Source: a virus. From it: DNA of 44,757 nucleotides. The notes under the pieces were generated by a model. The model had not been told where the DNA came from, made no database searches, and saw nothing but the letters and a program-made list of their open reading frames with translations. The stretch is from the IMG/VR virus record IMGVR_UViG_3300045988_163046. One strand, 5' to 3'. This document shows positions 1,975 through 44,757 of the stretch, one piece after another (positions within the stretch are counted from its first letter, which is position 1; every line of letters starts with the position of its first letter). The position numbers and the translations under genes were made by a program.

Positions 1975-2768
1975 CAGTTCAACCTATAATTCTTTCCAGG
2001 CTCTTTCTCAATTTCAAAGAAGAAACCATTGCACTTTTCAACAATTCTTCCAACAACTGCTTCATTGATATCAATCATTTCCTGGCTAGTTCTTTCGCAT
2101 GATATGATCGTCTGCATGTTGTTGTTATAGCGATAATCAATCAAATCAAAGATTGCTTTATCATCCAATCGATTTGCACTAGATTTGAACAAATCATCTA
2201 GATACAAGATTTGAGCGTGTTTAGCACGTTCTAGAAGCGAATAATCAAAGTTGCTAATAGAATTGCTCAACTCAATGTATCTGACGTACAGAACACGTTT
2301 ATTTTGTTCTAACAACCAATTACTGATTCCAGAACATAGATGTGTTTTCCCACATCCACTCTGTCCTAAAAACATCAACCAATTGCAAGGCATATGTTCT
2401 GCAAAATTGTTTTTGCAATCCTGGATGTAATTCACTGCCATTTTTTTGATTGCTTCCTGCCAAGGATCTGATGCATTGAAGCTATTGATTCGTTTATTCA
2501 ACAAATCACCTAGCCCACTGTTCTTTTTGTTTTTCTCAATCCACTCACTGCGATAGCTTGATAGTTTCTCACAGTCATTTCTTTTTGAACAAAATACCTT
2601 TGTTGCAGCTACCAAGTATTTCCCGTCGTAATACGCTGGCTTTTCCCAAATACCACATGCACCTGCCGCCATGCATTTATCACAATTGCTTTGGCAATGT
2701 TTGCTTTTAAGATATTTCTCATTGTTTGCATCATTTTGTTTTTGGATTATTTCACTAACTGACTGCAT
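1974..2768 (-). CDS. DnaC/IstB-like AAA+ ATPase (helicase loader)
   Basis: Walker A GQSGCGKTH, Walker B ILYLDDLF. It lies directly downstream of the initiator gene. The N-terminus is Cys-rich. Confidence 0.75.
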   Translation of the reverse strand: MQSVSEIIQKQNDANNEKYLKSKHCQSNCDKCMAAGACGIWEKPAYYDGKYLVAATKVFCSKRNDCEKLSSYRSEWIEKNKKNSGLGDLLNKRINSFNASDPWQEAIKKMAVNYIQDCKNNFAEHMPCNWLMFLGQSGCGKTHLCSGISNWLLEQNKRVLYVRYIELSNSISNFDYSLLERAKHAQILYLDDLFKSSANRLDDKAIFDLIDYRYNNNMQTIISCERTSQEMIDINEAVVGRIVEKCNGFFFEIEKEPGKNYRLN

Positions 2769-3571
2769 TACATCTTCATTCCTTTCGTGATCACAAAATT
2801 ATTTGTTTTTTGTTTAGGTGCTACACTGTTCAGATAAATTTCAAACTTAGATCCAAACAACGTGTCAGGTCTTAGATACTTGTTCATCTCTGTATCGTTT
2901 ACCCATTCAGAAGCTTTAACATCAATCACAAGCTTAAAGTCTTCTAATCTGAATCCTTCATTCCATCTAGCATGAATCTTATCTCTAGCAATACGATTAC
3001 TGTGTTTGTAATTCTTTGAACATTTAGAATTCAAGTAGTCAATAATTTCAACATAAGGGATTGTTTCTGATGCTGATAAATCAGTGTCGTCGGAACTTTC
3101 TTTTATATTTCTTTTATTATTAACTGTGTATATAAATGTTTTATTAACTGTCTTACATTGGACAGATTTGTCTTTTGTACATTGGACAGATTTGTCTTTT
3201 GTACATTGGACAGATTCGGTAAATGCATTGGACAAATTTGACCAATCGATAGATAAAGCATTTTTTAACTTTTCACCCATATTTCCAAATGCATACCAGC
3301 TTGTTTGATTCCAAGGATTTTCATTGTAATTTCCTTTGATAATCAAATCTTCATCAACCATTTTTTGAAGTATTCTTTGTATCTTTTTTTCACTCCAGTA
3401 TGGAAATAATTTTTTAAATCCTTTTGCAGAATTAAACGTCCAATATTTTCCATCATGATAGTTGTAATTATTTGCTTCATTTTTGTTGATCCAAAAACAA
3501 AACATATCAAATACAACAGCAACTTCAATGCCGTATTTGTCGGCAATTGCAATTTCAAAACTGTGTTTCAT
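2768..3571 (-). CDS. Replication initiator / replisome organiser (DnaD-like, conserved phage C-terminal domain)
   Basis: Winged-helix-like N-terminus. The C-terminus (IPYVEIIDYLNSK...ARWNEGF..EDFK.VID.K...W......YLRPDTLFG.KFE.YLN) is typical of phage DnaD-like initiators. It contains the iteron array. Confidence 0.6.
   Translation of the reverse strand: MKHSFEIAIADKYGIEVAVVFDMFCFWINKNEANNYNYHDGKYWTFNSAKGFKKLFPYWSEKKIQRILQKMVDEDLIIKGNYNENPWNQTSWYAFGNMGEKLKNALSIDWSNLSNAFTESVQCTKDKSVQCTKDKSVQCKTVNKTFIYTVNNKRNIKESSDDTDLSASETIPYVEIIDYLNSKCSKNYKHSNRIARDKIHARWNEGFRLEDFKLVIDVKASEWVNDTEMNKYLRPDTLFGSKFEIYLNSVAPKQKTNNFVITKGMKM
3155..3243. repeat. Iteron array (probable origin of replication) inside the initiator gene
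   Basis: The 24-bp unit ACATTGGACAGATTTGTCTTTTGT occurs exactly twice in tandem (3155-3178, 3179-3202). A third diverged unit and a fourth half-unit (ATTGGACAAAT) follow. The array encodes SVQCTKDK x2.5. Confidence 0.7.
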
Positions 3572-8384: not shown

Positions 8385-9398
8385 ATGAAATTATTCAAAA
8401 CTATTGGGATTGCTACGCTTGCACTATCCATGTGCACAGGATGTACAAGCTACAAAGAAAGAGTTAAAGCCAACAATCAAACAGAAGAAATAACTGACAG
8501 AGAATCAGATGATTTAAAAGCAAATTCTTTTGAAATTGGTGATTTTACTATATACTTACCTGAGTATTTTCAAAATGTCGTAAGTACAAAAGAAGGGCTA
8601 TCATTCAGGGCGGATGAAGGATATCCTATTTTAACCATCACTTTAATGGATATGGAATTGAATAGTGAAGCAGCGGATGCCTTTATGGATGCTTTAAAAG
8701 ACAGAGATGATTTCATGGAAGATACCGATACAAGTTATGGAATAAGAACATTAAAAAGAGCTGGTCGTACTGTATATTATTCAGAAACAACAGGAAATTT
8801 GACGTTAAATGATGATGACAGTGACAACGATACAAGCACACCGTCAAAATGCTTTATATATCTTTTATCAAATAACAATAAAACATCATTTATCAGTATG
8901 ATATTAATTCAGCCTAACGAAGGATTGAAATACGATTACGAAAATGAATTTGATAACATTGTTGATAATGTAGTTGTTAACGATAAAAAAGAGGAAGAAG
9001 AACAAAGCAATACAAATTCAACCACTTCAAATTCTTCTTCAAACAATTCATCTTCTTCACCAACTACAACTACTCCAAGTACAAATTCAAATGCATCAAC
9101 TCCATCTCCAACAACAGGAGAAAAAAATGCACTAAGAACTGCAAGAGAATATTTAAATATTTCTGCATTCTCTTATTCAGGATTAATTCATCAACTAGAA
9201 TATGAAGGTTACTCAACAGAGGAAGCCACTTATGCAGCTGATAACTGCAACGCAAACTGGAACGAGCAGGCCGCTAAATCAGCAAAAGAATATTTAGACA
9301 TATCGTCCTTCTCTCGACAAGGATTAATAGATCAATTGATTTATGAAGGTTATACACAAGAACAAGCAGAATATGGTGTAACACAAAACGGATATTAA
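8385..9398 (+). CDS. ltp: Ltp-family surface lipoprotein (superinfection-exclusion type)
   Basis: Signal peptide with a lipobox-like LSMCTGC, an S/T/N-rich linker, and two C-terminal Ltp repeats (NALRTAREYLNISAFSYSGLIHQLEYEGYSTEEATYAADN / AAKSAKEYLDISSFSRQGLIDQLIYEGYTQEQAEYGV). Confidence 0.8.
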   Translation: MKLFKTIGIATLALSMCTGCTSYKERVKANNQTEEITDRESDDLKANSFEIGDFTIYLPEYFQNVVSTKEGLSFRADEGYPILTITLMDMELNSEAADAFMDALKDRDDFMEDTDTSYGIRTLKRAGRTVYYSETTGNLTLNDDDSDNDTSTPSKCFIYLLSNNNKTSFISMILIQPNEGLKYDYENEFDNIVDNVVVNDKKEEEEQSNTNSTTSNSSSNNSSSSPTTTTPSTNSNASTPSPTTGEKNALRTAREYLNISAFSYSGLIHQLEYEGYSTEEATYAADNCNANWNEQAAKSAKEYLDISSFSRQGLIDQLIYEGYTQEQAEYGVTQNGY

Positions 9399-10707: not shown

Positions 10708-10924
10708 ACAATTTGTGTATATGGTGGGGCGATAGTTCCCACATCTCATCAGAATTTACATTCCTACCCTTGACACTTTCGTGCGCGATAGCCATCTTTC
10801 TATCCTCACATACACAATCAGAATGTTTTCTTTCAGCCAATAGACCTATCCAGTTCGAGGTGAACACAAACAACCCTACAGAAGCTATAAGCACTATGCA
10901 TGCTGGAACACAATACTTAATCAT
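10706..10924 (-). CDS. Possible 72-aa N-terminally membrane-anchored protein (uncertain)
   Basis: Hydrophobic N-terminus CVPACIVLIASVGLFVF and a weak RBS. An equally long ORF exists on the opposite strand. Local GC is elevated. Confidence 0.25.
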   Translation of the reverse strand: MIKYCVPACIVLIASVGLFVFTSNWIGLLAERKHSDCVCEDRKMAIAHESVKGRNVNSDEMWELSPHHIHKL

Positions 10925-11069
10925 AGCTTAACAGAACCTAATCTGTGACAAACAAGATAGAGCAGCAAGCTTATCTTCATCCGTATATTACATTATTTGC
11001 TAGTGAATTTCAATCAAATTTCTCCTATTTTGTACTTTTTTGTAACATTGTGTAATCTAATATCACTTT

Positions 11070-13874: not shown

Positions 13875-13953
13875 TTACAAATACCTCCTATCCTAATAAT
13901 AGTATTTAAATCGTTTGTACACTGTACAAAATAAAAGACCGTATTTAACGGCC

Positions 13954-35741: not shown

Positions 35742-36085
35742 TCATCATCCTCCCTTCCACATCCTATAAGCATTCCGTTTTCATCAAATTCAAAAGATGG
35801 TTTACGTTTGGAATGTTCTTCAGCATGACATAAATCACACAACGCTTCCAAATTAGAATCGCCAAATAGAATGTGTACATCTCTATAGTTATCCTGGTCA
35901 ATGTGTACTTTGTGATGCACACAAGTCGACCTGGTATAGATACCTTTTTTCAAACATCTTTCACAAAGTGGATGTGCCTTTCTATACGCTTTGCTTTTCT
36001 TTTCCCAAGCCTTGCTTGAGTAAAATTTTCTAGCATAATTTCTAGCACCTGTTTTTGTTGCTTCTGAACCATAATATTTTTTCAT
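35699..36085 (-). CDS. HNH endonuclease (packaging-associated)
   Basis: CERCLKKG...CVHHKVHI...NLEALCDLCHAEEH. It lies directly upstream of and overlaps terS. Confidence 0.85.
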   Translation of the reverse strand: MKKYYGSEATKTGARNYARKFYSSKAWEKKSKAYRKAHPLCERCLKKGIYTRSTCVHHKVHIDQDNYRDVHILFGDSNLEALCDLCHAEEHSKRKPSFEFDENGMLIGCGREDDECKKEHGKKESIHN

Positions 36086-36163
36086 ATCGCTACATTCAAA
36101 GTTTTAGTTAACAGATTTAAAGGACGACAATATGAACAGTAAACACTTTGAATGCAGTGATAT

Positions 36164-36195
36164 GAAAAAGACCCGTGTTTCCACAGGTCTTTTTC
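36164..36195. terminator. Bidirectional hairpin terminator upstream of the packaging genes
   Basis: GAAAAAGACC-12 nt-GGTCTTTTTC. Confidence 0.55.
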
Positions 36196-36735
36196 AAACG
36201 GGCACAATAATGAAACAATCCAAGAACTACCTTGTTTGTTCTAGAAGATGTTTTCCAATCTTCACAACTACAGAATATCACGGTTTTTCTTTGTACACTG
36301 TACAAAATGAAGAAATTCAGATTTTACCCCCTCTCGTACGCGCATGACCGAGTTTTTTTAAACTCCCCACGCCGTTCCCCAAAGTGCAAAAAACTTTTTG
36401 AAAGATAGGGGCGGTCTATGCTGATCTGATCCATGCTATGGCGCTTTCAGGGTTAAAAATCAAACCTATGCAGCTATCACAACGCCGCCACGTTCACGGC
36501 TTCAGTCATATGACATTTATATATTTGTTATTGTGTTGAAAGATATTTCGACATGCATTGTTGAAAGCGTTGTTTCATAACATGGCCATGACTACATTAA
36601 TAGAACACACGCGCACGTTCTTATATATGCAATAAGTCTTGCATCACTCCAATATATTAGATCATGCGCACCAACTCCATACACTCCAACATATCCATTG
36701 TCTTCCTGGAACTGAAGCAAACCCCACCAAAAAAA
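36196..36735. other. ORF-free, GC-elevated block (candidate structured ncRNA and/or cos region)
   Basis: No ORF of 60 aa or more between about 36350 and 36940. It is visibly more G+C-rich than the flanks (for example CCCCCTCTCGTACGCGCATGACCGAG, CCCCACGCCGTTCCCC, ACGCCGCCACGTTCACGGC). Terminator hairpins bracket it. Confidence 0.3.
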
Positions 36736-36752
36736 GGACGTTCACAACGTCC
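36736..36752 (-). terminator. Minus-strand intrinsic terminator
   Basis: GGACGTT-CAC-AACGTCC followed on the minus strand by TTTTTTT. Coordinates are accurate to about 1 nt. Confidence 0.55.
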
Positions 36753-36922
36753 ATACATGTATATATTACTAGTCTGTTAACTATATGTTATAAGACTAGA
36801 ACCGAACACGCTTAAAAGCCTTTTAAATAGGCGCTTGCGTGCACGTTTCAAAAACAAAAAGCTTTTTGAAAAAATGAGCACTAAAAAAAATAAGTTTAGG
36901 AGATGTAAACATAGAAGAAAAA

Positions 36923-36946
36923 AGACACGCTCAATTTTGCGTGTCT
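36923..36946 (-). terminator. Intrinsic terminator of the HTH gene
   Basis: AGACACGC-8 nt-GCGTGTCT followed on the minus strand by TTTTTT. It overlaps the stop codon. Confidence 0.7.
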
Positions 36947-37187
36947 AGTCTTTGTTTTCTTGTATATCATTTATATTTAATTCAATTATTTTTTCTTTTG
37001 TTGTCTTGTCAATTATATTTATTTCCAAGCCCATCCAATCGCATAACTTTATAAACTCACCTAAATTCATTCTATCGTTTGAAATCGTGTTACTTAATGA
37101 TTGACGCGTACGGTTTATATGTTTTGCGTATTCTATTTGTGTTTTGTTTCGCATCGTGAACAACGCTTTTATTTTCTCTTTTAACAT
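36945..37187 (-). CDS. XRE-family HTH regulator (second repressor-like gene)
   Basis: MRNKTQIEYAKHINRTRQSLSNTISNDRMNLGEFIKLCDWMGLEI fits HTH_3. It is divergent from a plus-strand operon. Confidence 0.75.
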   Translation of the reverse strand: MLKEKIKALFTMRNKTQIEYAKHINRTRQSLSNTISNDRMNLGEFIKLCDWMGLEINIIDKTTKEKIIELNINDIQENKD

Positions 37188-37213
37188 TTTTTTGCCGTCC
37201 TTTCTTTATGTGT

Positions 37214-37315
37214 ATATTATCATATTTACTTTGTAAATTCAAACTGCAACGTTGTAAATAAAAAATATTACATTTTATTATTGACAATGTAATATTTATG
37301 GTGTACATTGTAAAT
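37214..37315. promoter_or_regulatory. Divergent promoters with three TTGTAAAT repeats
   Basis: Minus strand: TTGAAT-17-TGATAATAT (37242-37214). Plus strand: TTGACA-17-TACATT (37281-37309). TTGTAAAT occurs at 37231, 37252 and 37308. Confidence 0.55.
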
Positions 37316-37352
37316 GTCTTAAGAGACAAGCCACACGAAAGGAGGTGCAAAC

Positions 37353-37520
37353 GTGGCAAAGTATAAACGTAGCAAACCGATGAAACGTCGCGATAGAAAA
37401 AAGCGCGAAAAAAAAGAGCGCATGATTTCGTACCTATCCAAAACGTTCGAAATTATATACACGCTCTTAATCGGTGAAGCCCTCAAGCTTCTTGCTAAAT
37501 ATCTAAGTGACTTATTTTAG
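37353..37520 (+). CDS. Small basic protein with hydrophobic C-terminus (GTG start)
   Basis: AGGAGG RBS 7 nt before the GTG. 55 aa: VAKYKRSKPMKRRDRKKREKKERMISYLSKTFEIIYTLLIGEALKLLAKYLSDLF. A hairpin CTAAGTGAC/GTCACTTAG spans the stop. Confidence 0.4.
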   Translation: MAKYKRSKPMKRRDRKKREKKERMISYLSKTFEIIYTLLIGEALKLLAKYLSDLF

Positions 37521-37647
37521 TCACTTAGGTACTTATATTATACCACGTTTTAAAATATGGAACTACTAAAAATAGCGTTATTACTATCGTTAGCATTCAA
37601 TGCATATCTTTTAAAAAAAATGATTGAAAAGTAAGGAGGTTAAAGAT

Positions 37648-38118
37648 ATGTTATCTATTTGTGAAACTTCAACTAAACACGTGGCTTATATGGCTACACA
37701 ATACGACGATTTTGCGCATTCTACAGACGGCGCAATCATGGAAGCGCTTGGCGATGAAATTCTTGAAAATATGTATGATGATGAGCTTCTTCCATTATGG
37801 TTTGAATTTAGAAGTGAACGATATAATGAATATTATTATGAATTAGATAATGATAATCTTGATTCATGTTTATCAAGCTATGAGCCTAATGAAATTGTAA
37901 GAATGACATTGGCTGGTGACTTCCATTATTGTGACGATTATTTCATTATTAATGATTATGAGAATTTAGAAAGTTTTTCGGATTATAGACTATTAGAAGA
38001 AGCTAGAAAAGATGATGAGTTCAAAACTTGGCTTACTGATGAGAAAAGTGACTGGGATATGGACTGGTTAGAAGAAACTAGAAAACAATATTTAGCTTAC
38101 TTAAAAGAAGGGTACTAA
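37648..38118 (+). CDS. Highly acidic protein (DNA-mimic / anti-restriction-like candidate)
   Basis: AAGGAGG RBS. 156 aa rich in D/E/Y/W (for example DEILENMYDDELLPLWFEF, DEKSDWDMDWLEE). No family recognised. Confidence 0.55.
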   Translation: MLSICETSTKHVAYMATQYDDFAHSTDGAIMEALGDEILENMYDDELLPLWFEFRSERYNEYYYELDNDNLDSCLSSYEPNEIVRMTLAGDFHYCDDYFIINDYENLESFSDYRLLEEARKDDEFKTWLTDEKSDWDMDWLEETRKQYLAYLKEGY

Positions 38119-38119
38119 C

Positions 38120-38269
38120 ATGTTAACCCGCAAAGATCTTGACAAGATGAGCGCCGTCCAGGTGCTCATACTTGCGTTTTTAAAATTATATTTAGCAGCA
38201 TGTACATCTGGTTTAATTATGGGCATAATATTGGGCCTTTTAAATATCATACTTCCACTTATTTATTAA
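38120..38269 (+). CDS. 49-aa membrane peptide
   Basis: The ATG lies 1 nt after the upstream stop. Sequence MLTRKDLDKMSAVQVLILAFLKLYLAACTSGLIMGIILGLLNIILPLIY. Confidence 0.4.
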   Translation: MLTRKDLDKMSAVQVLILAFLKLYLAACTSGLIMGIILGLLNIILPLIY

Positions 38270-38286
38270 TTGTAGGAGGTTAAACA

Positions 38287-38559
38287 ATGGAACTTTTAGA
38301 AATTAAATTATTACATAAATACGCAAGAATAAGATCATATATGAATGATCTTATTTCAGGTAATTACATTATTTATGATTTTCATTATGAATGTTTAGTG
38401 GATCATATTGAATCTTTTATTTTTGATCTTGCTTATATCGAAAATAAAAAAGTTATAAATATTTATTATGATCAACTTTTAAACGATTCTAAACAAGTGA
38501 GCAACGAACTTTATACGCTTGTTATAAATATTTTTGAAGATAATGAATGGAGGTTTTAA
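38287..38559 (+). CDS. Hypothetical protein
   Basis: AGGAGG RBS. 90 aa. Confidence 0.55.
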   Translation: MELLEIKLLHKYARIRSYMNDLISGNYIIYDFHYECLVDHIESFIFDLAYIENKKVINIYYDQLLNDSKQVSNELYTLVINIFEDNEWRF

Positions 38560-38561
38560 AA

Positions 38562-38792
38562 ATGAATAATAATGAATATATTGAATTTACAGAAAAAAAA
38601 CTAGATCGACTAAATGGATCTAGCTGCAAGCCTTATACAATAACCAAACATTTAAACGGTTTATATGATCTTAATTATGGTTTAGATACTATTGTTTGGA
38701 TGCTTGAACCGCGCGAACTTTGGCTACTTGTAAATACTTTATATACTTTGGATATTTTAGGAGGGCTTAAAAATGACAATATGGAAGCGTGA
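38562..38792 (+). CDS. Hypothetical protein
   Basis: GGAGG RBS before the ATG at 38562. 76 aa. Confidence 0.5.
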   Translation: MNNNEYIEFTEKKLDRLNGSSCKPYTITKHLNGLYDLNYGLDTIVWMLEPRELWLLVNTLYTLDILGGLKNDNMEA

Positions 38793-39354
38793 GCGAACTC
38801 ACTTTAATTACTACATCACAAATGAAAGAAAACAACCCCACATTTATGTTGAAGCGTTAGGAACTCCCAACGCTTCAACTGAAAAAATTTTAAAAGATCA
38901 TGGTTTTAAATTTGATCATAATAAATGTATGTATGCAGCTGCTCAAACAAATGACTTAAGGCTTTTTGTCGCTCATGATCTTGACAAGCTTTTCAATTAT
39001 GATATTCAAATATACTTCAATGCAGAAGCGAAAAAAGAACTTTTCGCGCCTGATATCCAAGAAATAAAAGATATCTGTTATTTCTTCAAAATTTATAAAT
39101 GTTATATAGATATATTAAATAAGGATCTTTTTAAGATCTGTAAACCAGGTTCAAAAAGCTTGCTGGCAACTTATAATACTAATTCAAAAACTATAGATGT
39201 ATTTAATAGAAACAAATTGCAAGAAAGTTATGTTTACCATGATGGTAAAATCGAAAAAATGAGCATTGAAAAAGCTGCACCAAAAAAGAAGAAGAAAGCA
39301 GCACTTACAGAACAACAAAAGATCAACAAAATGCTGGAAGAGTTTCCGTTTTAA
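38773..39354 (+). CDS. Hypothetical protein with Lys-rich tail
   Basis: GGAGGG RBS. 193 aa. C-terminus PKKKKKAALTEQQK. Confidence 0.55.
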   Translation: MTIWKRERTHFNYYITNERKQPHIYVEALGTPNASTEKILKDHGFKFDHNKCMYAAAQTNDLRLFVAHDLDKLFNYDIQIYFNAEAKKELFAPDIQEIKDICYFFKIYKCYIDILNKDLFKICKPGSKSLLATYNTNSKTIDVFNRNKLQESYVYHDGKIEKMSIEKAAPKKKKKAALTEQQKINKMLEEFPF

Positions 39355-39380
39355 AAAGGACTTGCAAAAGTCCTTTTTTT
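39353..39380. terminator. Strong bidirectional intrinsic terminator between convergent units
   Basis: AAAGGACTT-GCAA-AAGTCCTTT with a T7 run on plus and an A-run upstream. Confidence 0.8.
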
Positions 39381-39518
39381 ATATCCAATTGAATCAACTG
39401 CAAAAAGTTTTTCTTGCTTCTTTTGTTTGAATATAAAAAAGGCCTTAAAAGCTTACTGAAAGCAATTAAAACCCTAATTAATTAACCATCTATATTATAA
39501 ACCGTGTTTTTCACTTTT

Positions 39519-39818
39519 TCAATTTAAGAAGTTCCTCATTTGTCTAGGATCTAGAATACTAAACACTTTCATTAAGTTTGATCTTGAATTAATATAAAAA
39601 TATTTTGAATCCTTTTTGAGACCATTTCCAATTTCTTTATTCAATAACTTTACAACCAAACTATCAAACTTTTCTTTATTGACTTCGAAATACCATACTT
39701 CTTTAGAACCATCTGTTTCTAAAGAAATAATTTCTGCATCATCCGAACATACAACAACTATTGTTGTATCTTTATAACTTATATGAATATCAGTATATAA
39801 AAACTTGTTTTCAAACAT
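39519..39818 (-). CDS. Paralogue 1 of a tandem triplicated small-protein family
   Basis: MFENKFLYTDIHISYKDTTIVVVCS...NKEKFDSLVVKLL aligns with the two upstream ORFs. Confidence 0.6.
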   Translation of the reverse strand: MFENKFLYTDIHISYKDTTIVVVCSDDAEIISLETDGSKEVWYFEVNKEKFDSLVVKLLNKEIGNGLKKDSKYFYINSRSNLMKVFSILDPRQMRNFLN

Positions 39819-39836
39819 TCCAACACCTCCAGAAGC

Positions 39837-40124
39837 TTATTTATCCAGGATTAGAAAAACTTTTTCTAATTGTTCTTGAGACGTTGGAAAAAACTTTTGA
39901 GATTCTTTTTCATGCTTGCATAGAATCGAACCGTCAAAAAACTTTTCCAGCAGCTGAGAAAACTTTTCTTTCTTCACATAATAAACATAATTCACAGGCA
40001 TATCTTCATCATCATGCGCATTGTATTCAAAAACTTTTTCAACCATCTTAGAACAAACAACACTAATTTGTACATTATCATATCTCACAAAAACTTCTTT
40101 ATAAGAAAACTTATTTTCATCCAT
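39837..40124 (-). CDS. Paralogue 2 of the tandem family
   Basis: AGGAG RBS before the ATG at 40124. MDENKFSYKEVFVRYDNVQISVVCS...KKEKFSQLLEKFF. Confidence 0.6.
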   Translation of the reverse strand: MDENKFSYKEVFVRYDNVQISVVCSKMVEKVFEYNAHDDEDMPVNYVYYVKKEKFSQLLEKFFDGSILCKHEKESQKFFPTSQEQLEKVFLILDK

Positions 40125-40146
40125 TTCATCACTCCTAAAAAACTTT

Positions 40147-40500
40147 CTACACATCAGCTAATGTTATCATAAATTTTTTATAATCTTCATCTGACTTTAG
40201 ATAAATCTTATTGCAGCCATTCATTACGTCTTCATAGTTTAAGCAATCAATTTCATTATCTAAAAACTTTCTATATAAACTTTTGAATTGCGGTTCACAA
40301 ATATAATGCTTAATAACGAGTATACCATTCTTATCATAATTACACCTATAAAACTTTTCATCTGCCATATAAACACATACAACACGATCTCCGTATTGTA
40401 CAAATAAACTTTGTGTATTATTGATCATAAACAGCTTATTAAGCTCATCACCTATATTTATATGTTTTTCTGTTAAAAACTTTGGTAATTTGTGTTTCAT
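40147..40500 (-). CDS. Paralogue 3 (N-terminally extended) of the tandem family
   Basis: ...SLFVQYGDRVVCVYMADEKFYRC...EPQFKSLYRKFLDNEI shares the core pattern. Confidence 0.55.
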   Translation of the reverse strand: MKHKLPKFLTEKHINIGDELNKLFMINNTQSLFVQYGDRVVCVYMADEKFYRCNYDKNGILVIKHYICEPQFKSLYRKFLDNEIDCLNYEDVMNGCNKIYLKSDEDYKKFMITLADV

Positions 40501-40565
40501 TTTCTTTACTCCTTAAACTTTTCTAATAAACTTATTTCTGTATAATTATCGTGGAGGATAACAAA

Positions 40566-40655
40566 ATGACAGAAAATGAAAAAAGTAATGATGGTGTTCA
40601 ATCTAGAACTAAAGGCACAGTCAAGAAAGAAATACCATCAGAAGGCGGAAAATAA
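40566..40655 (+). CDS. 29-aa hydrophilic micro-ORF on the opposite strand inside the moron
   Basis: TATAAT at 40541-40546, GGAGGA at 40553-40558, ATG at 40566. Sequence MTENEKSNDGVQSRTKGTVKKEIPSEGGK. Confidence 0.35.
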   Translation: MTENEKSNDGVQSRTKGTVKKEIPSEGGK

Positions 40656-40667
40656 CCTCCATAGTCA

Positions 40668-41264
40668 CTATCGTTGTTCGATGGTGACTATTTTCATTTC
40701 ATCATTAATAAAAACTTTTGCTCCTGGCAATGCACAAGCTTCTGAAAAACTTTTCTCAGATACACTTTTTCTTGGTGCTATAGTAAATTCACCAGTTCTT
40801 TCTGAATGCATTTCAATATATCCACACGCAATAAAACTTCCTTCTCTAGTATAGAAATATCCAATTGTCATGTTATCACTTTCAAAAACATCTTCCTGAA
40901 TAGTTCCAAAAGTCATTTCAGACAATCCTTTGCCTTTTCTAATCAAATTAACTAATGTTCTAAAAAGCTTAATAACATGAGCATGTACAGTAAACGAACT
41001 TATTAATGTTAATAAAAATGTAATCAAAACACTTTTATAAATATTCCATTTCAAATAATCACTAAAGAAGAAGCAAACAAGAATATTAAACAAGGATAAG
41101 ATCATCAAATACAATCTTTCTTTATCTGCTCGGTCTTGTTCTTCAATCACATTTGTGCATGTTAAAACGTAATAATTTAAATATCCACATCCACCTGCTG
41201 CAACAAACGCTAGTAAAACTTCTTTTATGAAATCTTCCACATTATCACTCCTATTTATCTGCAA
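40668..41264 (-). CDS. Membrane protein: three N-terminal TM helices plus a C-terminal soluble domain
   Basis: Hydrophobic segments LLAFVAAGGCGYLNYYVL, LYLMILSLFNILVCFFF and SVLITFLLTLISSFTV. It overlaps the lipoprotein gene by 14 nt. Confidence 0.6.
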   Translation of the reverse strand: MQINRSDNVEDFIKEVLLAFVAAGGCGYLNYYVLTCTNVIEEQDRADKERLYLMILSLFNILVCFFFSDYLKWNIYKSVLITFLLTLISSFTVHAHVIKLFRTLVNLIRKGKGLSEMTFGTIQEDVFESDNMTIGYFYTREGSFIACGYIEMHSERTGEFTIAPRKSVSEKSFSEACALPGAKVFINDEMKIVTIEQR

Positions 41265-41526
41265 TCGTTTCTACAAAACAATTATAATAAACATATCTTT
41301 TTCCATCATAATCAAATTTTACATATCCACCATCATTTGTTTCAATATCAATTCTACCTTCATAGCTTGCTATAATTTTTCCATCTGCTGTATACACATT
41401 AATTATTCTATTCAATCCGCCATTCAAATCTGATTTAACATCAGTGCCAAAACGATCCATAGAAGCACATCCAAACAAGGAAATGCCAATCATTCCAACC
41501 ATTAATAATTTGTATATTTTATTCAT
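41251..41526 (-). CDS. Small lipoprotein (beta-sandwich type)
   Basis: Signal peptide with lipobox LFGC. The mature part DLNGGLNRIINVYTADGKIIASYEGRIDIETNDGGYVKFDYDGKRYVYYN resembles small prophage lipoproteins. Confidence 0.7.
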   Translation of the reverse strand: MNKIYKLLMVGMIGISLFGCASMDRFGTDVKSDLNGGLNRIINVYTADGKIIASYEGRIDIETNDGGYVKFDYDGKRYVYYNCFVETIADK

Positions 41527-41557
41527 TTCATTCCTCTTTTCTATGTCCGATAACTAT

Positions 41558-41566
41558 ATATTATCA
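41558..41566 (-). promoter_or_regulatory. Extended -10 promoter (TGATAATAT) for the moron
   Basis: Read on the minus strand about 30 nt upstream of the lipoprotein RBS. A weak hairpin (41589-41605) lies upstream. Confidence 0.4.
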
Positions 41567-41672
41567 GACTAACTACAAACCTTTTAAAAGCCTAGTGAAT
41601 AGGCTACTTTGTAACACTTTTCTAAAATAAAAACTTTATGAAATTTTCAACCACGTATTTATGCAATTAATC

Positions 41673-41960
41673 TCATCTTACTTCACCTGTTTCAATCATC
41701 TTTGCCGCTTGTAAAATTCCTGTCTTAACCCACTTAGATTGATCATCATTATCAAAAACTCTTTTTGCGTTCTCTCTTAAACCTTTGACAATAGCATCAA
41801 TCGAGACTTCTTTGTTTTTCTTTTCAAGAATGTATTCAATAGCATCATCACATTTTCCAACCTTATTTGCCATAACAACAACATAGCCTTCATCTAATGC
41901 TTTTTGTAATTCTTCAAAACTTTTCCCATCAAAAATGTATGATCTGATTACTTTCTGCAT
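41673..41960 (-). CDS. Hypothetical protein
   Basis: 95-aa ORF. No motif. Confidence 0.55.
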   Translation of the reverse strand: MQKVIRSYIFDGKSFEELQKALDEGYVVVMANKVGKCDDAIEYILEKKNKEVSIDAIVKGLRENAKRVFDNDDQSKWVKTGILQAAKMIETGEVR

Positions 41961-41997
41961 TGTTTGTCCTCACTTATTTATTCAAATCTCCATATAA

Positions 41998-42228
41998 TTA
42001 ATAACACCTGGTTATCGGAATTAAAGTAGTTATTCTTCCATTGTATACAGGTATCAACGTAGTGCTGCAATGTGATGATGTATTAGACGATGTATCATTT
42101 GAGTCATCAGAAACAACAACTGCACACAACACAATTAAAACAATTGTAATAATAAGCGTACCAAATAATATTATTTCACAGATATAATCTCCAATCCATT
42201 CACCTATTCTTTTTAGCATATCAATCAT
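41998..42228 (-). CDS. Small membrane protein
   Basis: TM segment ICEIILFGTLIITIVLIVLCAVVV. ATGA-coupled to the upstream gene. Confidence 0.5.
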   Translation of the reverse strand: MIDMLKRIGEWIGDYICEIILFGTLIITIVLIVLCAVVVSDDSNDTSSNTSSHCSTTLIPVYNGRITTLIPITRCY

Positions 42229-42692
42229 TTGCTTAAATCTCCCATAACGAGCTTTTTAAGCTCTTTCTTCATTGCGTAATACATTTTCATTCTGCTACAG
42301 TACTTTTCTCCTGAAAGCTTTTCAAATGATTCTCCGTTGATATAATGACGTTTCATATATAAACGAATATCATCATTTGGAATAAGATCAATAATTGTTT
42401 CAGCTTCTCTCATCTTTCCTAAGATTAGATTCTTGTCGTCTTCAAGCACTTTTTCTTTTGAAATAAACTTTACAAGAACATCATTTGTAATATCCATATT
42501 TTTCTTTGAATCCAACCTTTGTTCAAACGATGGAGATTTTGGATCTGAAAATTCTTTTTTGCGAACCTCCAAATCCTTTAAAATTCCATCCAACGATTTA
42601 AACTTTCTTTCATAGATCTTGAACATTTCAAGTTTTTTAATCAGTGTATCCACCTGAACATCTACATATTCTTCATAATCCGTTTTACTCAT
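42225..42692 (-). CDS. Possible late-gene activator (ArpU/RinA/sigma region-4-like C-terminus)
   Basis: The C-terminus IRLYMKRHYINGESFEKLSGEKYCSRMKMYYAMKKELKKL is region-4-like. It is one of the last genes of the early operon, four genes upstream of the moron. Weak call. Confidence 0.3.
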   Translation of the reverse strand: MSKTDYEEYVDVQVDTLIKKLEMFKIYERKFKSLDGILKDLEVRKKEFSDPKSPSFEQRLDSKKNMDITNDVLVKFISKEKVLEDDKNLILGKMREAETIIDLIPNDDIRLYMKRHYINGESFEKLSGEKYCSRMKMYYAMKKELKKLVMGDLSK

Positions 42693-42824
42693 TTTCTCTC
42701 CTATGCAATCTCTTCAATTTCCTCAATGCTGCATGATGGAAATTTCATATAAAATTTGTACATTGCCATACTTTTTGATTCCTCCTGAACTTCCATCACA
42801 CAAATATTATTGTCTTTGATATAT

Positions 42825-43037
42825 TTAATCCTGTATTTCTTTAACACCTTTATATCCTAACCTTTCTAATTCTTTTTTTCTTTCTTCATTTTCTGTATAT
42901 TTAATCCATGTGCATCCTTCTACAAACCAATCATCTCCATAGACATTAAATACCTTTTCTATGGTTTCCTTGCAAATATCTTCTTCGCTTAAGTGATCTA
43001 CAATAAAAACTAATTCTTCTCTTGGTATGAATTTCAT
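42825..43037 (-). CDS. Hypothetical protein
   Basis: 70-aa ORF, coupled to the upstream gene. Confidence 0.5.
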   Translation of the reverse strand: MKFIPREELVFIVDHLSEEDICKETIEKVFNVYGDDWFVEGCTWIKYTENEERKKELERLGYKGVKEIQD

Positions 43038-43237
43038 TTTGTCTCCTCAAATCCTTCATAAGAACTGCGATACATACATTTGTATGCTCGCAAGTCCTTT
43101 TTCTTTTGTTCCAATTCGTGCATTAACACTTCATTCTGATCTTCTAAATTGTTGATTCTTCCAGATACAACAACCGAATACAACATCATTGCTGCAATGC
43201 TACCGAAAAAGAGTCCTGCAATAAAATAAATCATCAC
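43034..43237 (-). CDS. Small membrane-anchored coiled-coil protein
   Basis: N-terminal TM IYFIAGLFFGSIAAMMLYSVVV. Confidence 0.5.
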   Translation of the reverse strand: MMIYFIAGLFFGSIAAMMLYSVVVSGRINNLEDQNEVLMHELEQKKKDLRAYKCMYRSSYEGFEETK

Positions 43238-43464
43238 TCATTCTCTCCGACAAATTCAATCTGTTCTCTGTCTACGCAAAATCTAGCACCATCATTAAAT
43301 TCGATGTCATACAAATATCTAGTCGTGCCAACTAGTACACAAATGTTTTGCTGATGAACAATATTACCAACTTGACCGATGTAATCTTCTTTGTGTTTAC
43401 CAGTACTACTAATCAATTCTTCTTCATACGTATCATCTAAACTCAGTAATATAGCTTTCTGCAT
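43234..43464 (-). CDS. Hypothetical protein
   Basis: 76-aa ORF, coupled. Confidence 0.5.
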   Translation of the reverse strand: MQKAILLSLDDTYEEELISSTGKHKEDYIGQVGNIVHQQNICVLVGTTRYLYDIEFNDGARFCVDREQIEFVGENE

Positions 43465-43958
43465 TATTTGATTACCTCACAACTTTCTAGAATATCTTTA
43501 ATCAATTCGTCACCATTAATATTCTTGAAATGTCCTTTTTCTTTCATTTCTTTTAGTAAACCCATTTCCTTGAACTTAAAATCAACCGAGAAATGCTGTA
43601 ATAAATCATATTCAAATTGAGTTAATTTGTATGTTGGCTTTTTGTATGGACTTGCCAACCATTCAAATCTTTTTTCTCCACAACAGTCACAATTGAAATC
43701 GCATTCGTCACAATTTGTATCTTCACATGGTTTAGGCTCGCCATTTACTACCGCTAAATTATATTTAACATTTTGCACAATTTCATCTTTGAAGTGTTCG
43801 TAATTAGTTTCTGCTTTTTCTTCAAAATGCTCCTCTGCTAATTTAGCTAAAAAATCCAAATCTTGAGTAAATTGTTCTCTTATTTGCGCAGGATGGTTTG
43901 ATGATATACAAAAGTCGTACATTCTCATTATTGCATCTTGATAATTTTCTTTTGTCAT
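43464..43958 (-). CDS. Hypothetical protein with Cys cluster
   Basis: CEDTNCDECDFNCDCCGEK cluster. 164 aa. Confidence 0.55.
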   Translation of the reverse strand: MTKENYQDAIMRMYDFCISSNHPAQIREQFTQDLDFLAKLAEEHFEEKAETNYEHFKDEIVQNVKYNLAVVNGEPKPCEDTNCDECDFNCDCCGEKRFEWLASPYKKPTYKLTQFEYDLLQHFSVDFKFKEMGLLKEMKEKGHFKNINGDELIKDILESCEVIK

Positions 43959-43969
43959 TTAAATCCACC

Positions 43970-44419
43970 TCAATCTACAATCTTTCTGCCACAATTTGGA
44001 CAATATCTCGGTGCGTATTCTTTCATACATCTATCTTCTGGATAATCTTCATCAATTTCGATTTCGTTATAATTTTCGATAATAATTCCACAATTTGAAC
44101 ATTCAAATCCATCTACTAAATTATATTCTGATTCGTTGGTACAAGTTTCTTCTTCTAATCTGCTTATAGCCAAATACTCGACATTTTGTTGTCCTTCATA
44201 CCAATCATTTAACCAACTTACACAATCTTCGCAAGCATTCCACGCTGCACATTCCGTCGAATACGTCCATTCTTCTTCAAAATCATATTTGTATCTAAGA
44301 TAAACTAAAAAACTATAATCATCATTTTCTGCTATGTAATCATTTAATTCACTATCTGTCATTCCTTTTTTCAATCGAACAAATTCAATTGAAGGTATTT
44401 TAATATCGTTCATTTTCAT
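43970..44419 (-). CDS. Hypothetical protein with C-terminal zinc-ribbon
   Basis: FECSNCG...YCPNCGRK CxxC pairs. Confidence 0.55.
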   Translation of the reverse strand: MKMNDIKIPSIEFVRLKKGMTDSELNDYIAENDDYSFLVYLRYKYDFEEEWTYSTECAAWNACEDCVSWLNDWYEGQQNVEYLAISRLEEETCTNESEYNLVDGFECSNCGIIIENYNEIEIDEDYPEDRCMKEYAPRYCPNCGRKIVD

Positions 44420-44426
44420 TCTCCTT

Positions 44427-44735
44427 TTAACTCATTAATTTATTTCTGTAACGATTATCTAATTCTTCCATAACGTGCTTTCCACCGTATAGCTTTGATG
44501 CGTAAACAATATAGTCTAATTCATCTAGCATACTGTTCATCAAGTCTTTATTCGTACAGACAAATTTAATATTCTTTTGTAAAGATAAATAAGTCTGCTC
44601 AATTTGTTTATCAATTTCAGAAGCACTGCTTTTATCTAATCTGATAAAAGTATTTATTTTTATAGCATCTTCTCTTTGCTTTTTTCTTTCCTTTAATTGA
44701 GCGAATATATTCGATTTAAATAAATATTTTTCCAT
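44427..44735 (-). CDS. Hypothetical early protein (spans the contig junction)
   Basis: 102-aa ORF. Its first 97 nt are duplicated at 1..97 by the terminal overlap. Confidence 0.55.
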   Translation of the reverse strand: MEKYLFKSNIFAQLKERKKQREDAIKINTFIRLDKSSASEIDKQIEQTYLSLQKNIKFVCTNKDLMNSMLDELDYIVYASKLYGGKHVMEELDNRYRNKLMS

Positions 44736-44757
44736 CTTAGCTCCTTCTATAATTCTA
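44639..44757. repeat. Terminal direct repeat, copy B (identical to 1..119)
   Basis: Read directly. Confidence 0.95.

Follow-up and report, generated by a model that had tools for sequence, protein, structure and literature searches.

The window analysed here is the whole 44,757-nt stretch of DNA held as IMG/VR virus record IMGVR_UViG_3300045988_163046, which reads as the complete genome, assembled as a circle, of a temperate siphovirus-like phage of human-gut Firmicutes. Along its minus strand the genes follow one another in the order HNH endonuclease, terS, terL, portal, HK97-fold capsid, tail genes, holin, endolysin and integrase. The element under study is a gap of 859 nt between the start of the HNH gene (36085) and the stop codon of an open reading frame (ORF) for an 80-amino-acid (aa) helix-turn-helix (HTH)-like protein (37187->36945). 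The HNH gene (36085->35699, minus strand) matches Pfam HNH and the HNH families of PHROGs. It overlaps by 43 nt the P27-family small terminase gene terS (35741->35367, minus strand; Pfam Terminase_4), which is preceded by a strong Shine-Dalgarno (SD) sequence of its own (GGGAGGA) within the HNH 3' end. The large terminase gene terL (35370->33712, minus strand) matches Pfam TerL_ATPase and TerL_nuclease, and TIGR01558 also matches in the packaging genes, with a score under its cut-off. We consider, with a probability of roughly 80%, that the gap holds two separate modules: a cos site, which is a further example of a well-known type, and a late promoter with its leader.

An HNH protein 92–100% identical to that of the window was found at 63 IMG/VR loci. 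Further carriers are a metagenome-assembled genome with the label Solobacterium and, from human-gut metagenomes, 26 contigs of 141 kb at most; the family is carried by at least 60 IMG/VR contigs and these 26 contigs, some of the copies lying within bacterial contigs. The within-family alignment comprises 54 distinct relatives. A scan of IMG/VR for the core of the cos site also identified diverged groups in which HNH is 65–76% identical to that of the window (L065, L074, L134/139/140, L141 and L135/136). Seven extra contigs from a 16-mer scan were dropped, having nothing else in common with the window, which is the chance level for a 16-mer, as was a cos-core match in L100, a chance occurrence within a peptidase gene. 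The closest proteins of catalogued phages are at most 48% identical for TerL and at most 46% for HNH, and a blastn search of the gap against 50,697 phage records returned no nucleotide match, the cos sequence included.

Native termini and the cos module

Contig 3300045988_146550 (44,713 bp) carries at one end TACACGACGCTCTTCCGATCT joined to GTTCAAAAAAACTGG, that is, the tail of an Illumina adapter followed by the sequence of the window from 36363 down the minus strand. At this end (locus L026) the adapter gives way to GTTCAAAAAAACT at 36363. Its other end (L113) reads CGCTCTTCCGATCT joined to TTCCCCGAAACGC, the adapter tail being followed by the sequence of the window from 36375 up the plus strand. 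Contigs 090725 and 134465 begin exactly at 36363 (loci L008 and L038), and contig 074254 begins at 36359 (L014). The other locus boundaries in the region come as adjacent pairs and are therefore boundaries of storage chunks rather than contig ends. Since adapters stand at a fixed position on both ends of a unit-length genome, these ends are native termini, fixed and unique, at one genomic site. The window itself has a direct terminal repeat of 119 nt (1–119 and 44639–44757); such shared ends reflect circular assembly and are not the true ends, which are 36363 and 36375.

The 11 nt at 36364–36374 are absent from both adapter-bearing ends of 3300045988_146550. In ligation libraries, end repair fills in 5' overhangs and degrades 3' overhangs (PMC5557969), so the loss of the same 11 nt from both ends points, indirectly, to complementary 3' single-stranded extensions. 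The nicking site, cosN, is thus placed at 36364–36374, with an 11-nt 3' overhang that reads 5'-CGGCGTGGGGA-3' on the minus strand (36374–36364) and 5'-TCCCCACGCCG-3' on the plus strand. The nicks would fall between 36374 and 36375 on the plus strand and between 36364 and 36363 on the minus strand. All but two of the 54 relatives have an identical overhang. The read-through metagenome contigs L227 and L244 have one G more or one G fewer in its GGGG run, which may be an assembly error at a low-coverage junction or real variation.

A cos region was one of two readings that the first-pass annotation had proposed for this block, and it is borne out by the contig termini in public assemblies together with a cos core conserved across diverged phages. 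Three points weigh against it. The right-hand terminus (36375) comes from a single contig, scans for the other end of contig 134465 and for more right-end termini having found none; the bulk-metagenome contigs all read through cos, as expected for prophage or replicating DNA; and the polarity and length of the overhang are deduced from library chemistry.

The nicking site lies in a module of about 120 bp (36320–36440), whose core and flanking runs are conserved in five diverged groups and which coincides with the G+C maximum of the window. Its parts are ATGGATCAG, a C run (CCGCCCC on the minus strand, 36414–36408), an A5/T6 tract, the core GGGGAACGGCGTGGGGAGTT (36380->36361), an A7 tract, a small variable palindrome (36348–36335) and a G run (36331–36327). 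The centre of the overhang is about 41 nt from the C run and from the G run, which makes the arrangement symmetric. The diverged groups share the C run about 25 nt upstream, a core of the form TTGGGGAACGGCG, T or A, GGGGAGTT, an A-rich tract, and AAAGGGGG(G)TA about 25 nt downstream; beyond these elements their sequence is no longer alike. The G+C content peaks at 0.46, the maximum for the whole stretch (mean 0.328, standard deviation 0.04), in the 200-nt windows that begin at 36301 and 36321; over 36164–36946 it is 0.382. The elevated G+C noted earlier over some 0.55 kb is real, but it is limited to about 36300–36520 (~220 nt). As 9 of the 11 overhang positions are G or C, the overhang accounts for much of the spike. 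The peak is the overhang together with the two symmetric runs, and the composition anomaly is accounted for without a new RNA.

By analogy with HK97, phiSLT and sk1, the P27-type TerS and TerL, helped by the adjacent HNH endonuclease, would nick the two strands 11 nt apart and so leave the G+C-rich 3' overhangs. Packaging would proceed leftwards, making HNH the first gene on the chromosome, and after injection the ends would anneal and restore the circle. Assistance of TerL/TerS by an HNH nuclease in cos cleavage is established for these three phages (summarised in PMC12967558), and HK97 is the reference for 3' cos ends (PMC5557969). In the window, too, the site adjoins terS and terL with HNH in the packaging module. 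The phage is like the HK97-type systems (HK97 gp74; S. aureus phiSLT/phi12; Lactococcus sk1 HrdP) in having HNH by terS/terL, a portal, an HK97-fold capsid, a fixed cos and 3' overhangs. Unlike in several catalogued HNH phages, the HNH gene here overlaps terS and cos lies upstream of HNH. The genome records of Lactobacillus phages iA2 and PLE2 and of C. difficile phiMMP04 close with the HNH gene, which suggests that cos lies between HNH and the terminase genes. HK97 has the same layout as these three.

In the C. difficile phages phiCD481-1 and phiCD506, cos ends with 3' overhangs of 13 nt were mapped with PhageTerm (PMC5557969). They resemble the present phage in being temperate siphoviruses of Firmicutes, in a TerL about 30% identical over 96% of its length and in 3' ends of similar length, and they differ from it in the overhang (13 nt vs. 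11 nt), in an unrelated cos sequence and in their hosts. The cos of phage lambda is organised as cosQ-cosN-cosB, has 12-nt 5' overhangs and requires no HNH protein. Like it, the present module is a nicking site with flanking accessory elements over ~120–200 bp, with the terminase genes just downstream in the direction of packaging; unlike in lambda, the terminase-side element beside the cut also carries a (predicted) promoter. Locating cos to the base gives the true ends, the orientation and the first gene of an abundant uncultured human-gut prophage family. Adapter remnants and clustered contig ends in public assemblies are a usable substitute for termini mapping, and the cos module is a possible probe for satellites that hijack this packaging system.

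The predicted late promoter and its leader RNA

The best-conserved part of the gap is 36326–36229, with a column identity of 98–100% that exceeds that of the cos core. It includes a predicted late promoter (36272–36307, minus strand), which is composed of TTTTGTACAGTGTACAAA, 12 nt and the hexamer TATTCT (36277->36272), with TG at 36280–36279; within the first of these elements lies the 15-nt palindrome TTGTACAGTGTACAA (36305->36291). Transcription is predicted to start at the G at 36265, and the promoter lies about 85 nt downstream of the cut. Two exact copies of the palindrome occur in the window, the other being at 13929->13915. This second copy of the motif (13896–13952, minus strand) comprises a terminator (13952->13936), TTTTGTACAGTGTACAAA, 12 nt, TATTAT and GGAGG, followed by the r1t-type holin gene (13874->13653, minus strand) and the Amidase_2 endolysin gene (13555->12479, minus strand). 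The same 18 nt are thus found at the same spacing to a -10-like hexamer at 36307->36272 (TATTCT, preceded by TGA) and at 13931->13896 (TATTAT). Since a terminase-binding site would be without a role before the lysis genes, the second copy fits a late promoter.

The five diverged groups all retain the pattern TRTGnTATnnT, with a G 7 nt further on. Depending on the group, the -10 box lies 80 to 185 nt from the cos core, and the -10 box, hairpin, terminator and HNH gene stay together. The palindrome at the -35 position is group-specific, being GCCCAATGGGC in L134 and a CACTGTG-centred one in L141. We infer the promoter, like the leader structures described below, from conservation and covariation, and the palindrome and the -10 box probably form a late promoter. 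An extended -10-like box comes after the palindrome, which itself overlaps the -35 position. A phage late activator probably serves this promoter.

The first-pass annotation had named short repeats and palindromes of the block as possible terminase or late-regulator binding sites. TTGAAAGATA is indeed present twice, and the palindromes GTCATATGAC and CAAAAAGCTTTTTG exist as well, but the best late-regulator candidate is another palindrome, the one at 36291–36305. Two further promoter candidates were rejected. One is a sigma-70-like site at 36099->36071, whose -10 corresponds to HNH codons 4–5 and whose -35 is not conserved in other groups; the other, in the loop of the long hairpin described below, is not conserved. 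As a separate observation, TTGTACATTGGACAG occurs twice, 24 nt apart, at 3175–3213 within ORF 2768–3571, and matches the late-promoter palindrome at 12 of 15 positions.

Activators of the Ltr/RinA/ArpU/LtrB type switch on the packaging and lysis operons in Gram-positive phages (PMC3753634). The product of ORF 42692->42225 (minus strand, 155 aa) is a candidate regulator of both late promoters: it matches phrog_36 'transcriptional regulator' with an expectation value (E) of 9e-5, and homologues 93–95% identical to it carry a precomputed PF07374 assignment. The arrangement resembles Ltr-type late promoters (PMC3753634, PMC3152322), in which a terminator, a repeated motif and a promoter without a good -35 precede the packaging operon. 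As in those systems, the lysis genes appear to be under the same control, the motif upstream of the packaging-operon promoter being shared with them, and an ORF with a weak, sub-cut-off likeness to DUF1492 is present. Unlike in those systems, an inverted repeat overlaps the -35 position here instead of direct repeats lying upstream, the candidate activator gene is 6 kb away instead of adjacent, and a terminator lies downstream of the promoter. In general, the late promoter fits a known paradigm, and by this analogy it is probably activator-dependent.

Several observations speak against the promoter and its candidate activator. A promoter scan made no call at the predicted site, where just 4 of the 6 positions of the -10 agree with the consensus and a -35 is lacking. 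The near-invariant block could instead, or also, be a TerS site (cosB). The match of ORF 42692->42225 to DUF1492 (LtrB) has E = 1e-3 and 19.6 bits, compared with a Pfam cut-off of 21.5, and an NCBIfam search of this ORF gave no match.

The transcript would begin with a hairpin (36244–36263, minus strand; GAAGAU...AUCUUC with a purine-rich loop), whose helix is kept with different sequences in other groups, namely UAAAGAAU/AUUCUUUA in L134 and L141 and CGAAGAU/AUCUUCG in L135. After ~100 nt it would reach T3, an intrinsic terminator in the leader (36164–36195, minus strand) that consists of GACCUGUG-GAAA-CACGGGUC and then UUUUU. The T3 hairpin folds with -23.1 kcal/mol on the minus strand vs. 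-17.6 kcal/mol on the plus strand, and its G-U pairs are A-C mismatches in the plus sense. Thus the terminator hairpin, earlier taken to be bidirectional, is real but serves the minus strand. The T3 stems differ among groups (GCGGUA, AUGGAGG, AGAACUCAUC), with a U tract always next, and within the family one T3 pair is C-G, U-A or U-G.

If T3 is read through, a long hairpin of 19–23 bp (36078–36169, minus strand; inverted repeat I1) would fold over the start of the HNH gene. Its 5' arm runs from the T3 U tract, the 3' arm finishing on the HNH start codon (36085–36083), an AUG with no SD sequence ahead of it. The leader 36266->36070 folds with z = -6.4. The arms differ from group to group (AUUCAAAGUG, GUACAGUU, CUAACUAUC, AUAAUCGG and AUACAUCAGU), yet all of them pair, with -25 to -30 kcal/mol and 1–4 G-U pairs per fold in the five groups. 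All three leader helices are therefore kept in five groups with differing sequences, that is, they covary between groups. HNH relatives at 31–37% identity have ordinary ribosome-binding sites and lack the long hairpin. These features suggest that the long hairpin probably holds HNH translation low; the nuclease would then be scarce, while terS would use its own strong ribosome-binding site.

In all five groups, the loop of the long hairpin (36106–36141, minus strand) contains a pyrimidine motif, UCCU/CUCCU, that resembles an anti-Shine-Dalgarno sequence and persists although the loop length varies by 12-nt and 5-nt indels within the family. A pairing of TGATATT with AATATTA (HNH codons 3–5) in minimum-energy folds was discarded and ascribed to two independently conserved A+T-rich motifs.

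T3 would attenuate the late operon or render it conditional. A strong terminator between a late promoter and a late operon of ~22 kb sits awkwardly there unless transcription reads through it. Among the Pfam and PHROGs matches of ORFs 36945–44735 no antiterminator family was seen, a weak negative, as most of these ORFs are unannotated. The lysis copy of the promoter has a terminator ahead of it and no leader terminator, and the fact that a terminator precedes the lysis-cassette promoter argues against a terminator-resistant polymerase.

A close parallel is lambda pR'-tR' (6S RNA), a late leader with Q antitermination. There, as here, a strong intrinsic terminator stands within ~100 nt of a late promoter and before a long late operon. 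Unlike in lambda, no Q-like protein was recognised in ORFs 36945–44735, a set with too little annotation for this to count for much, and the second promoter for the lysis cassette argues against processive antitermination. The lambda leader lies before the lysis genes, whereas the present one is situated between cos and the packaging genes.

Of the whole gap, only this leader with its terminator and start-codon hairpin might offer something new. Tentatively, and with the odds against it, the leader between cos and HNH may be an undescribed cis-regulatory RNA device that gates expression of the HNH-terminase operon, either through factor-dependent antitermination or because the long hairpin is processed. 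Such a device would combine the purine-loop hairpin, the intrinsic terminator and the covarying 19–23-bp hairpin that hides an SD-less start codon and has UCCU in its loop. A conserved 55-aa arginine/lysine-rich protein encoded 1 kb upstream (37353–37520) is a conceivable partner. If this proposal is true, the device would link transcription of the late genes with the packaging machinery at the end of the genome. The shared promoter motif and the leader provide a testable handle on the control of the late genes and of the potentially toxic HNH nuclease.

Competing explanations for the gap

It was considered that the main product of the promoter is a discrete late small RNA of ~100 nt (from ~36265 to T3 at ~36164) with a function of its own, comparable to lambda 6S RNA except that it would act in trans. 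A promoter-proximal hairpin, ~50 invariant nt and a strong terminator would suit such a molecule, and the arrangement is kept in five groups. We regard it as improbable: it has no known target or Rfam family, the segment just ahead of T3 varies by indels within the family, and the HNH and terminase genes need a promoter, for which this one is the sole candidate.

Alternatively, 36229–36326 might be only cosB, a TerS site, with a coincidental likeness to a promoter; T3 would then stop upstream transcription and the late genes would use another promoter. The block does separate the cut site from the terminase genes, which is the position of cosB in lambda; such strict conservation suits a protein-binding site, and the promoter scan is silent there. 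Against this stands the recurrence of the 18 nt and the -10 box 22 kb away, before the lysis genes, where a terminase would find no use for them. A cosB element would also sit oddly with a distance from core to -10 box that varies while the -10 box, hairpin, terminator and HNH gene keep together. Moreover, the space from T3 to the HNH start codon is too short for a further promoter, and it contains no conserved one. This explanation therefore seems decidedly unlikely, and a late promoter, possibly overlapping a TerS site, is preferred.

The other proposal of the first-pass annotation was a large structured non-coding RNA, ROOL- or GOLLD-like or of a new class, transcribed between the terminators. 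Its appeal lies in the size of the block, the lack of ORFs, the rise of G+C in an A+T-rich genome and the flanking terminators, and phage-associated Rfam RNAs (drum and skipping-rope) do occur elsewhere in the window. In a search of the whole window at the gathering score, Rfam gave no match in the gap region, neither to ROOL or GOLLD nor to any other family. At E<=10 over 35900–37400 there was again no ROOL or GOLLD; only sub-threshold matches to microRNAs and small RNAs appeared, all on the long hairpin, and the best match other than microRNAs was SSRC34, with 29 bits vs. a cut-off of 64. Folding of the 540 nt enclosed by the inner terminators is no more stable than that of shuffles (z = -0.88 for the minus strand, -1.93 for the plus strand). 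Sliding alifold with column shuffles (16 diverse sequences) gave z near 0 across 36520–36250, and signals were seen at short hairpins only: 36797–36770, the upstream terminator T2 (see below), 36619–36603, 36553–36533, T3 and the long hairpin. RNAalifold on the 54 sequences returned a covariation term of just -1.98 kcal/mol, with a compensatory change in 5 of 166 predicted pairs, all of them in short hairpins, including the T2 and T3 stems and 36797–36770. In addition, the cut site of the virion DNA falls mid-block, and the right-hand 490 nt of the block are missing from other groups with the cos core. A large structured RNA at this locus thus appears very improbable, and we return to a cos module followed by a promoter and its leader.

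Headful (pac) or terminal-repeat packaging, with the contig ends as assembly accidents, would account for the circular assemblies, or the overlapping ends, of the window and of many relatives. It is hardly credible, as four independent contigs stop within 4 nt of one another, one contig has the adapter at both ends, flanking the same 11 nt, and an HNH gene beside the terminase genes is a hallmark of cos phages (PMC12967558).

The ORFs in the gap are short and overlapping and have no Pfam match. In the alignment, 361 of 831 columns are variable, and in no 120-nt window from 36890 to 36091 do they favour one of the three codon phases; in the same test, the variable counts for the neighbouring genes are 7, 5 and 50 (HNH) and 5, 4 and 46 (terS). 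With the indels found in relatives, this agrees with the earlier view that the block contains no credible ORF. A small protein gene hidden in the gap, such as the plus-strand ORF 36132–36347 (71 aa, the longest), is highly improbable, even though its ATG lies 7 nt past an SD-like AAAGGA ribosome-binding sequence and L134 has a comparable SD sequence and ATG on the same strand, since codon periodicity is lacking, its frame is interrupted in relatives by a 16-nt insertion and 1-nt indels, the L134 product is unrelated, and L135 and L065 have mini-ORFs only.

The right-hand part of the gap and other features of the genome

The two minus-strand terminators that had been placed at 36923–36946 and 36736–36752 were both called by a terminator scan. 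The first, T1, is the intrinsic terminator of the small HTH gene (37187->36945), with an 8-bp stem that begins at the stop codon of this ORF and is followed by TTTTTTCTTCT. The second, T2, consists of GGACGTTGTGAACGTCC and then seven T. Among relatives, its sixth stem pair is U-A, G-C or U-G, the last of which pairs in the minus sense only. T1, T2 and T3 each have a stem and a U tract, and the stems of T2 and T3 are kept by compensatory change. T1 and T2 would shield cos and the late genes from upstream transcription.

The stretch 36441–36890 is family-specific non-coding DNA at the right end of the virion genome, ~81–95% conserved in relatives. It contains the palindrome CAAAAAGCTTTTTG (36855–36868), the hairpin at 36770–36797, a hypervariable part (~36640–36700) and GTCATATGAC (36506–36515). 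An nhmmer profile of 36890–36400 found no match in the diverged groups that share the cos core. Three 8-bp half-sites lie at 36533–36567, namely TTTCAACA, the inverted TGTTGAAA (TGTCGAAA in the window) and TTTCAACA again. In the palindrome TGTTGAAA-N4-TTTCAACA the arms are invariant, without covariation, and the central 4 nt and the spacers vary, which makes it a candidate protein-binding site. In general, the palindromes and repeats of this part look like protein-binding sites and insulators. Among the repeats, TTGAAAGATA is located at 36398 and 36536, and the 17-nt repeat CAAAAARCTTTTTGAAA at 36387 and 36855. The motif CTTTCAAMA is enriched (9 matches vs. 2.7 expected), three of its matches lying on the minus strand in 36396–36567.

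A mosaic joint is seen at ~36890, where the homology of nearly all relatives begins; from here through HNH they are 88–96% identical to the window. Upstream of the joint, most relatives carry a different allele of the HTH gene, and the allele of the window recurs, at 87–91% protein identity, in the otherwise diverged L140 and L141 groups. The HTH ORF forms a divergent unit (37188–37531) with the opposite, plus-strand ORF of 55 aa (37353–37520). The latter has a strong SD sequence, a sigma-70-like promoter (37281–37309) and its own hairpin terminator (37500–37531), and three ACNTTGTAAAT repeats and a 22-nt inverted repeat lie between the two ORFs. In the 55-aa protein, an arginine/lysine-rich N-terminus is combined with an amphipathic C-terminus; the protein is 80–84% conserved in the L134 group and was not seen near L135 or L141.

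Farther along the genome, two Rfam phage RNAs lie head to tail on the minus strand at 10716–10929, drum at 10818–10929 (74.8 bits) and skipping-rope at 10716–10814 (57.9 bits). They are situated between the tyrosine integrase gene (12167->11070, minus strand) and a PBECR3/PBECR2 nuclease ORF (10671->10288), all on the same strand. The product of the plus-strand ORF 8385–9398 has two surface-lipoprotein repeats of the Ltp type (Pfam Lipoprotein_Ltp), which points to a gene for superinfection exclusion within the lysogeny region.

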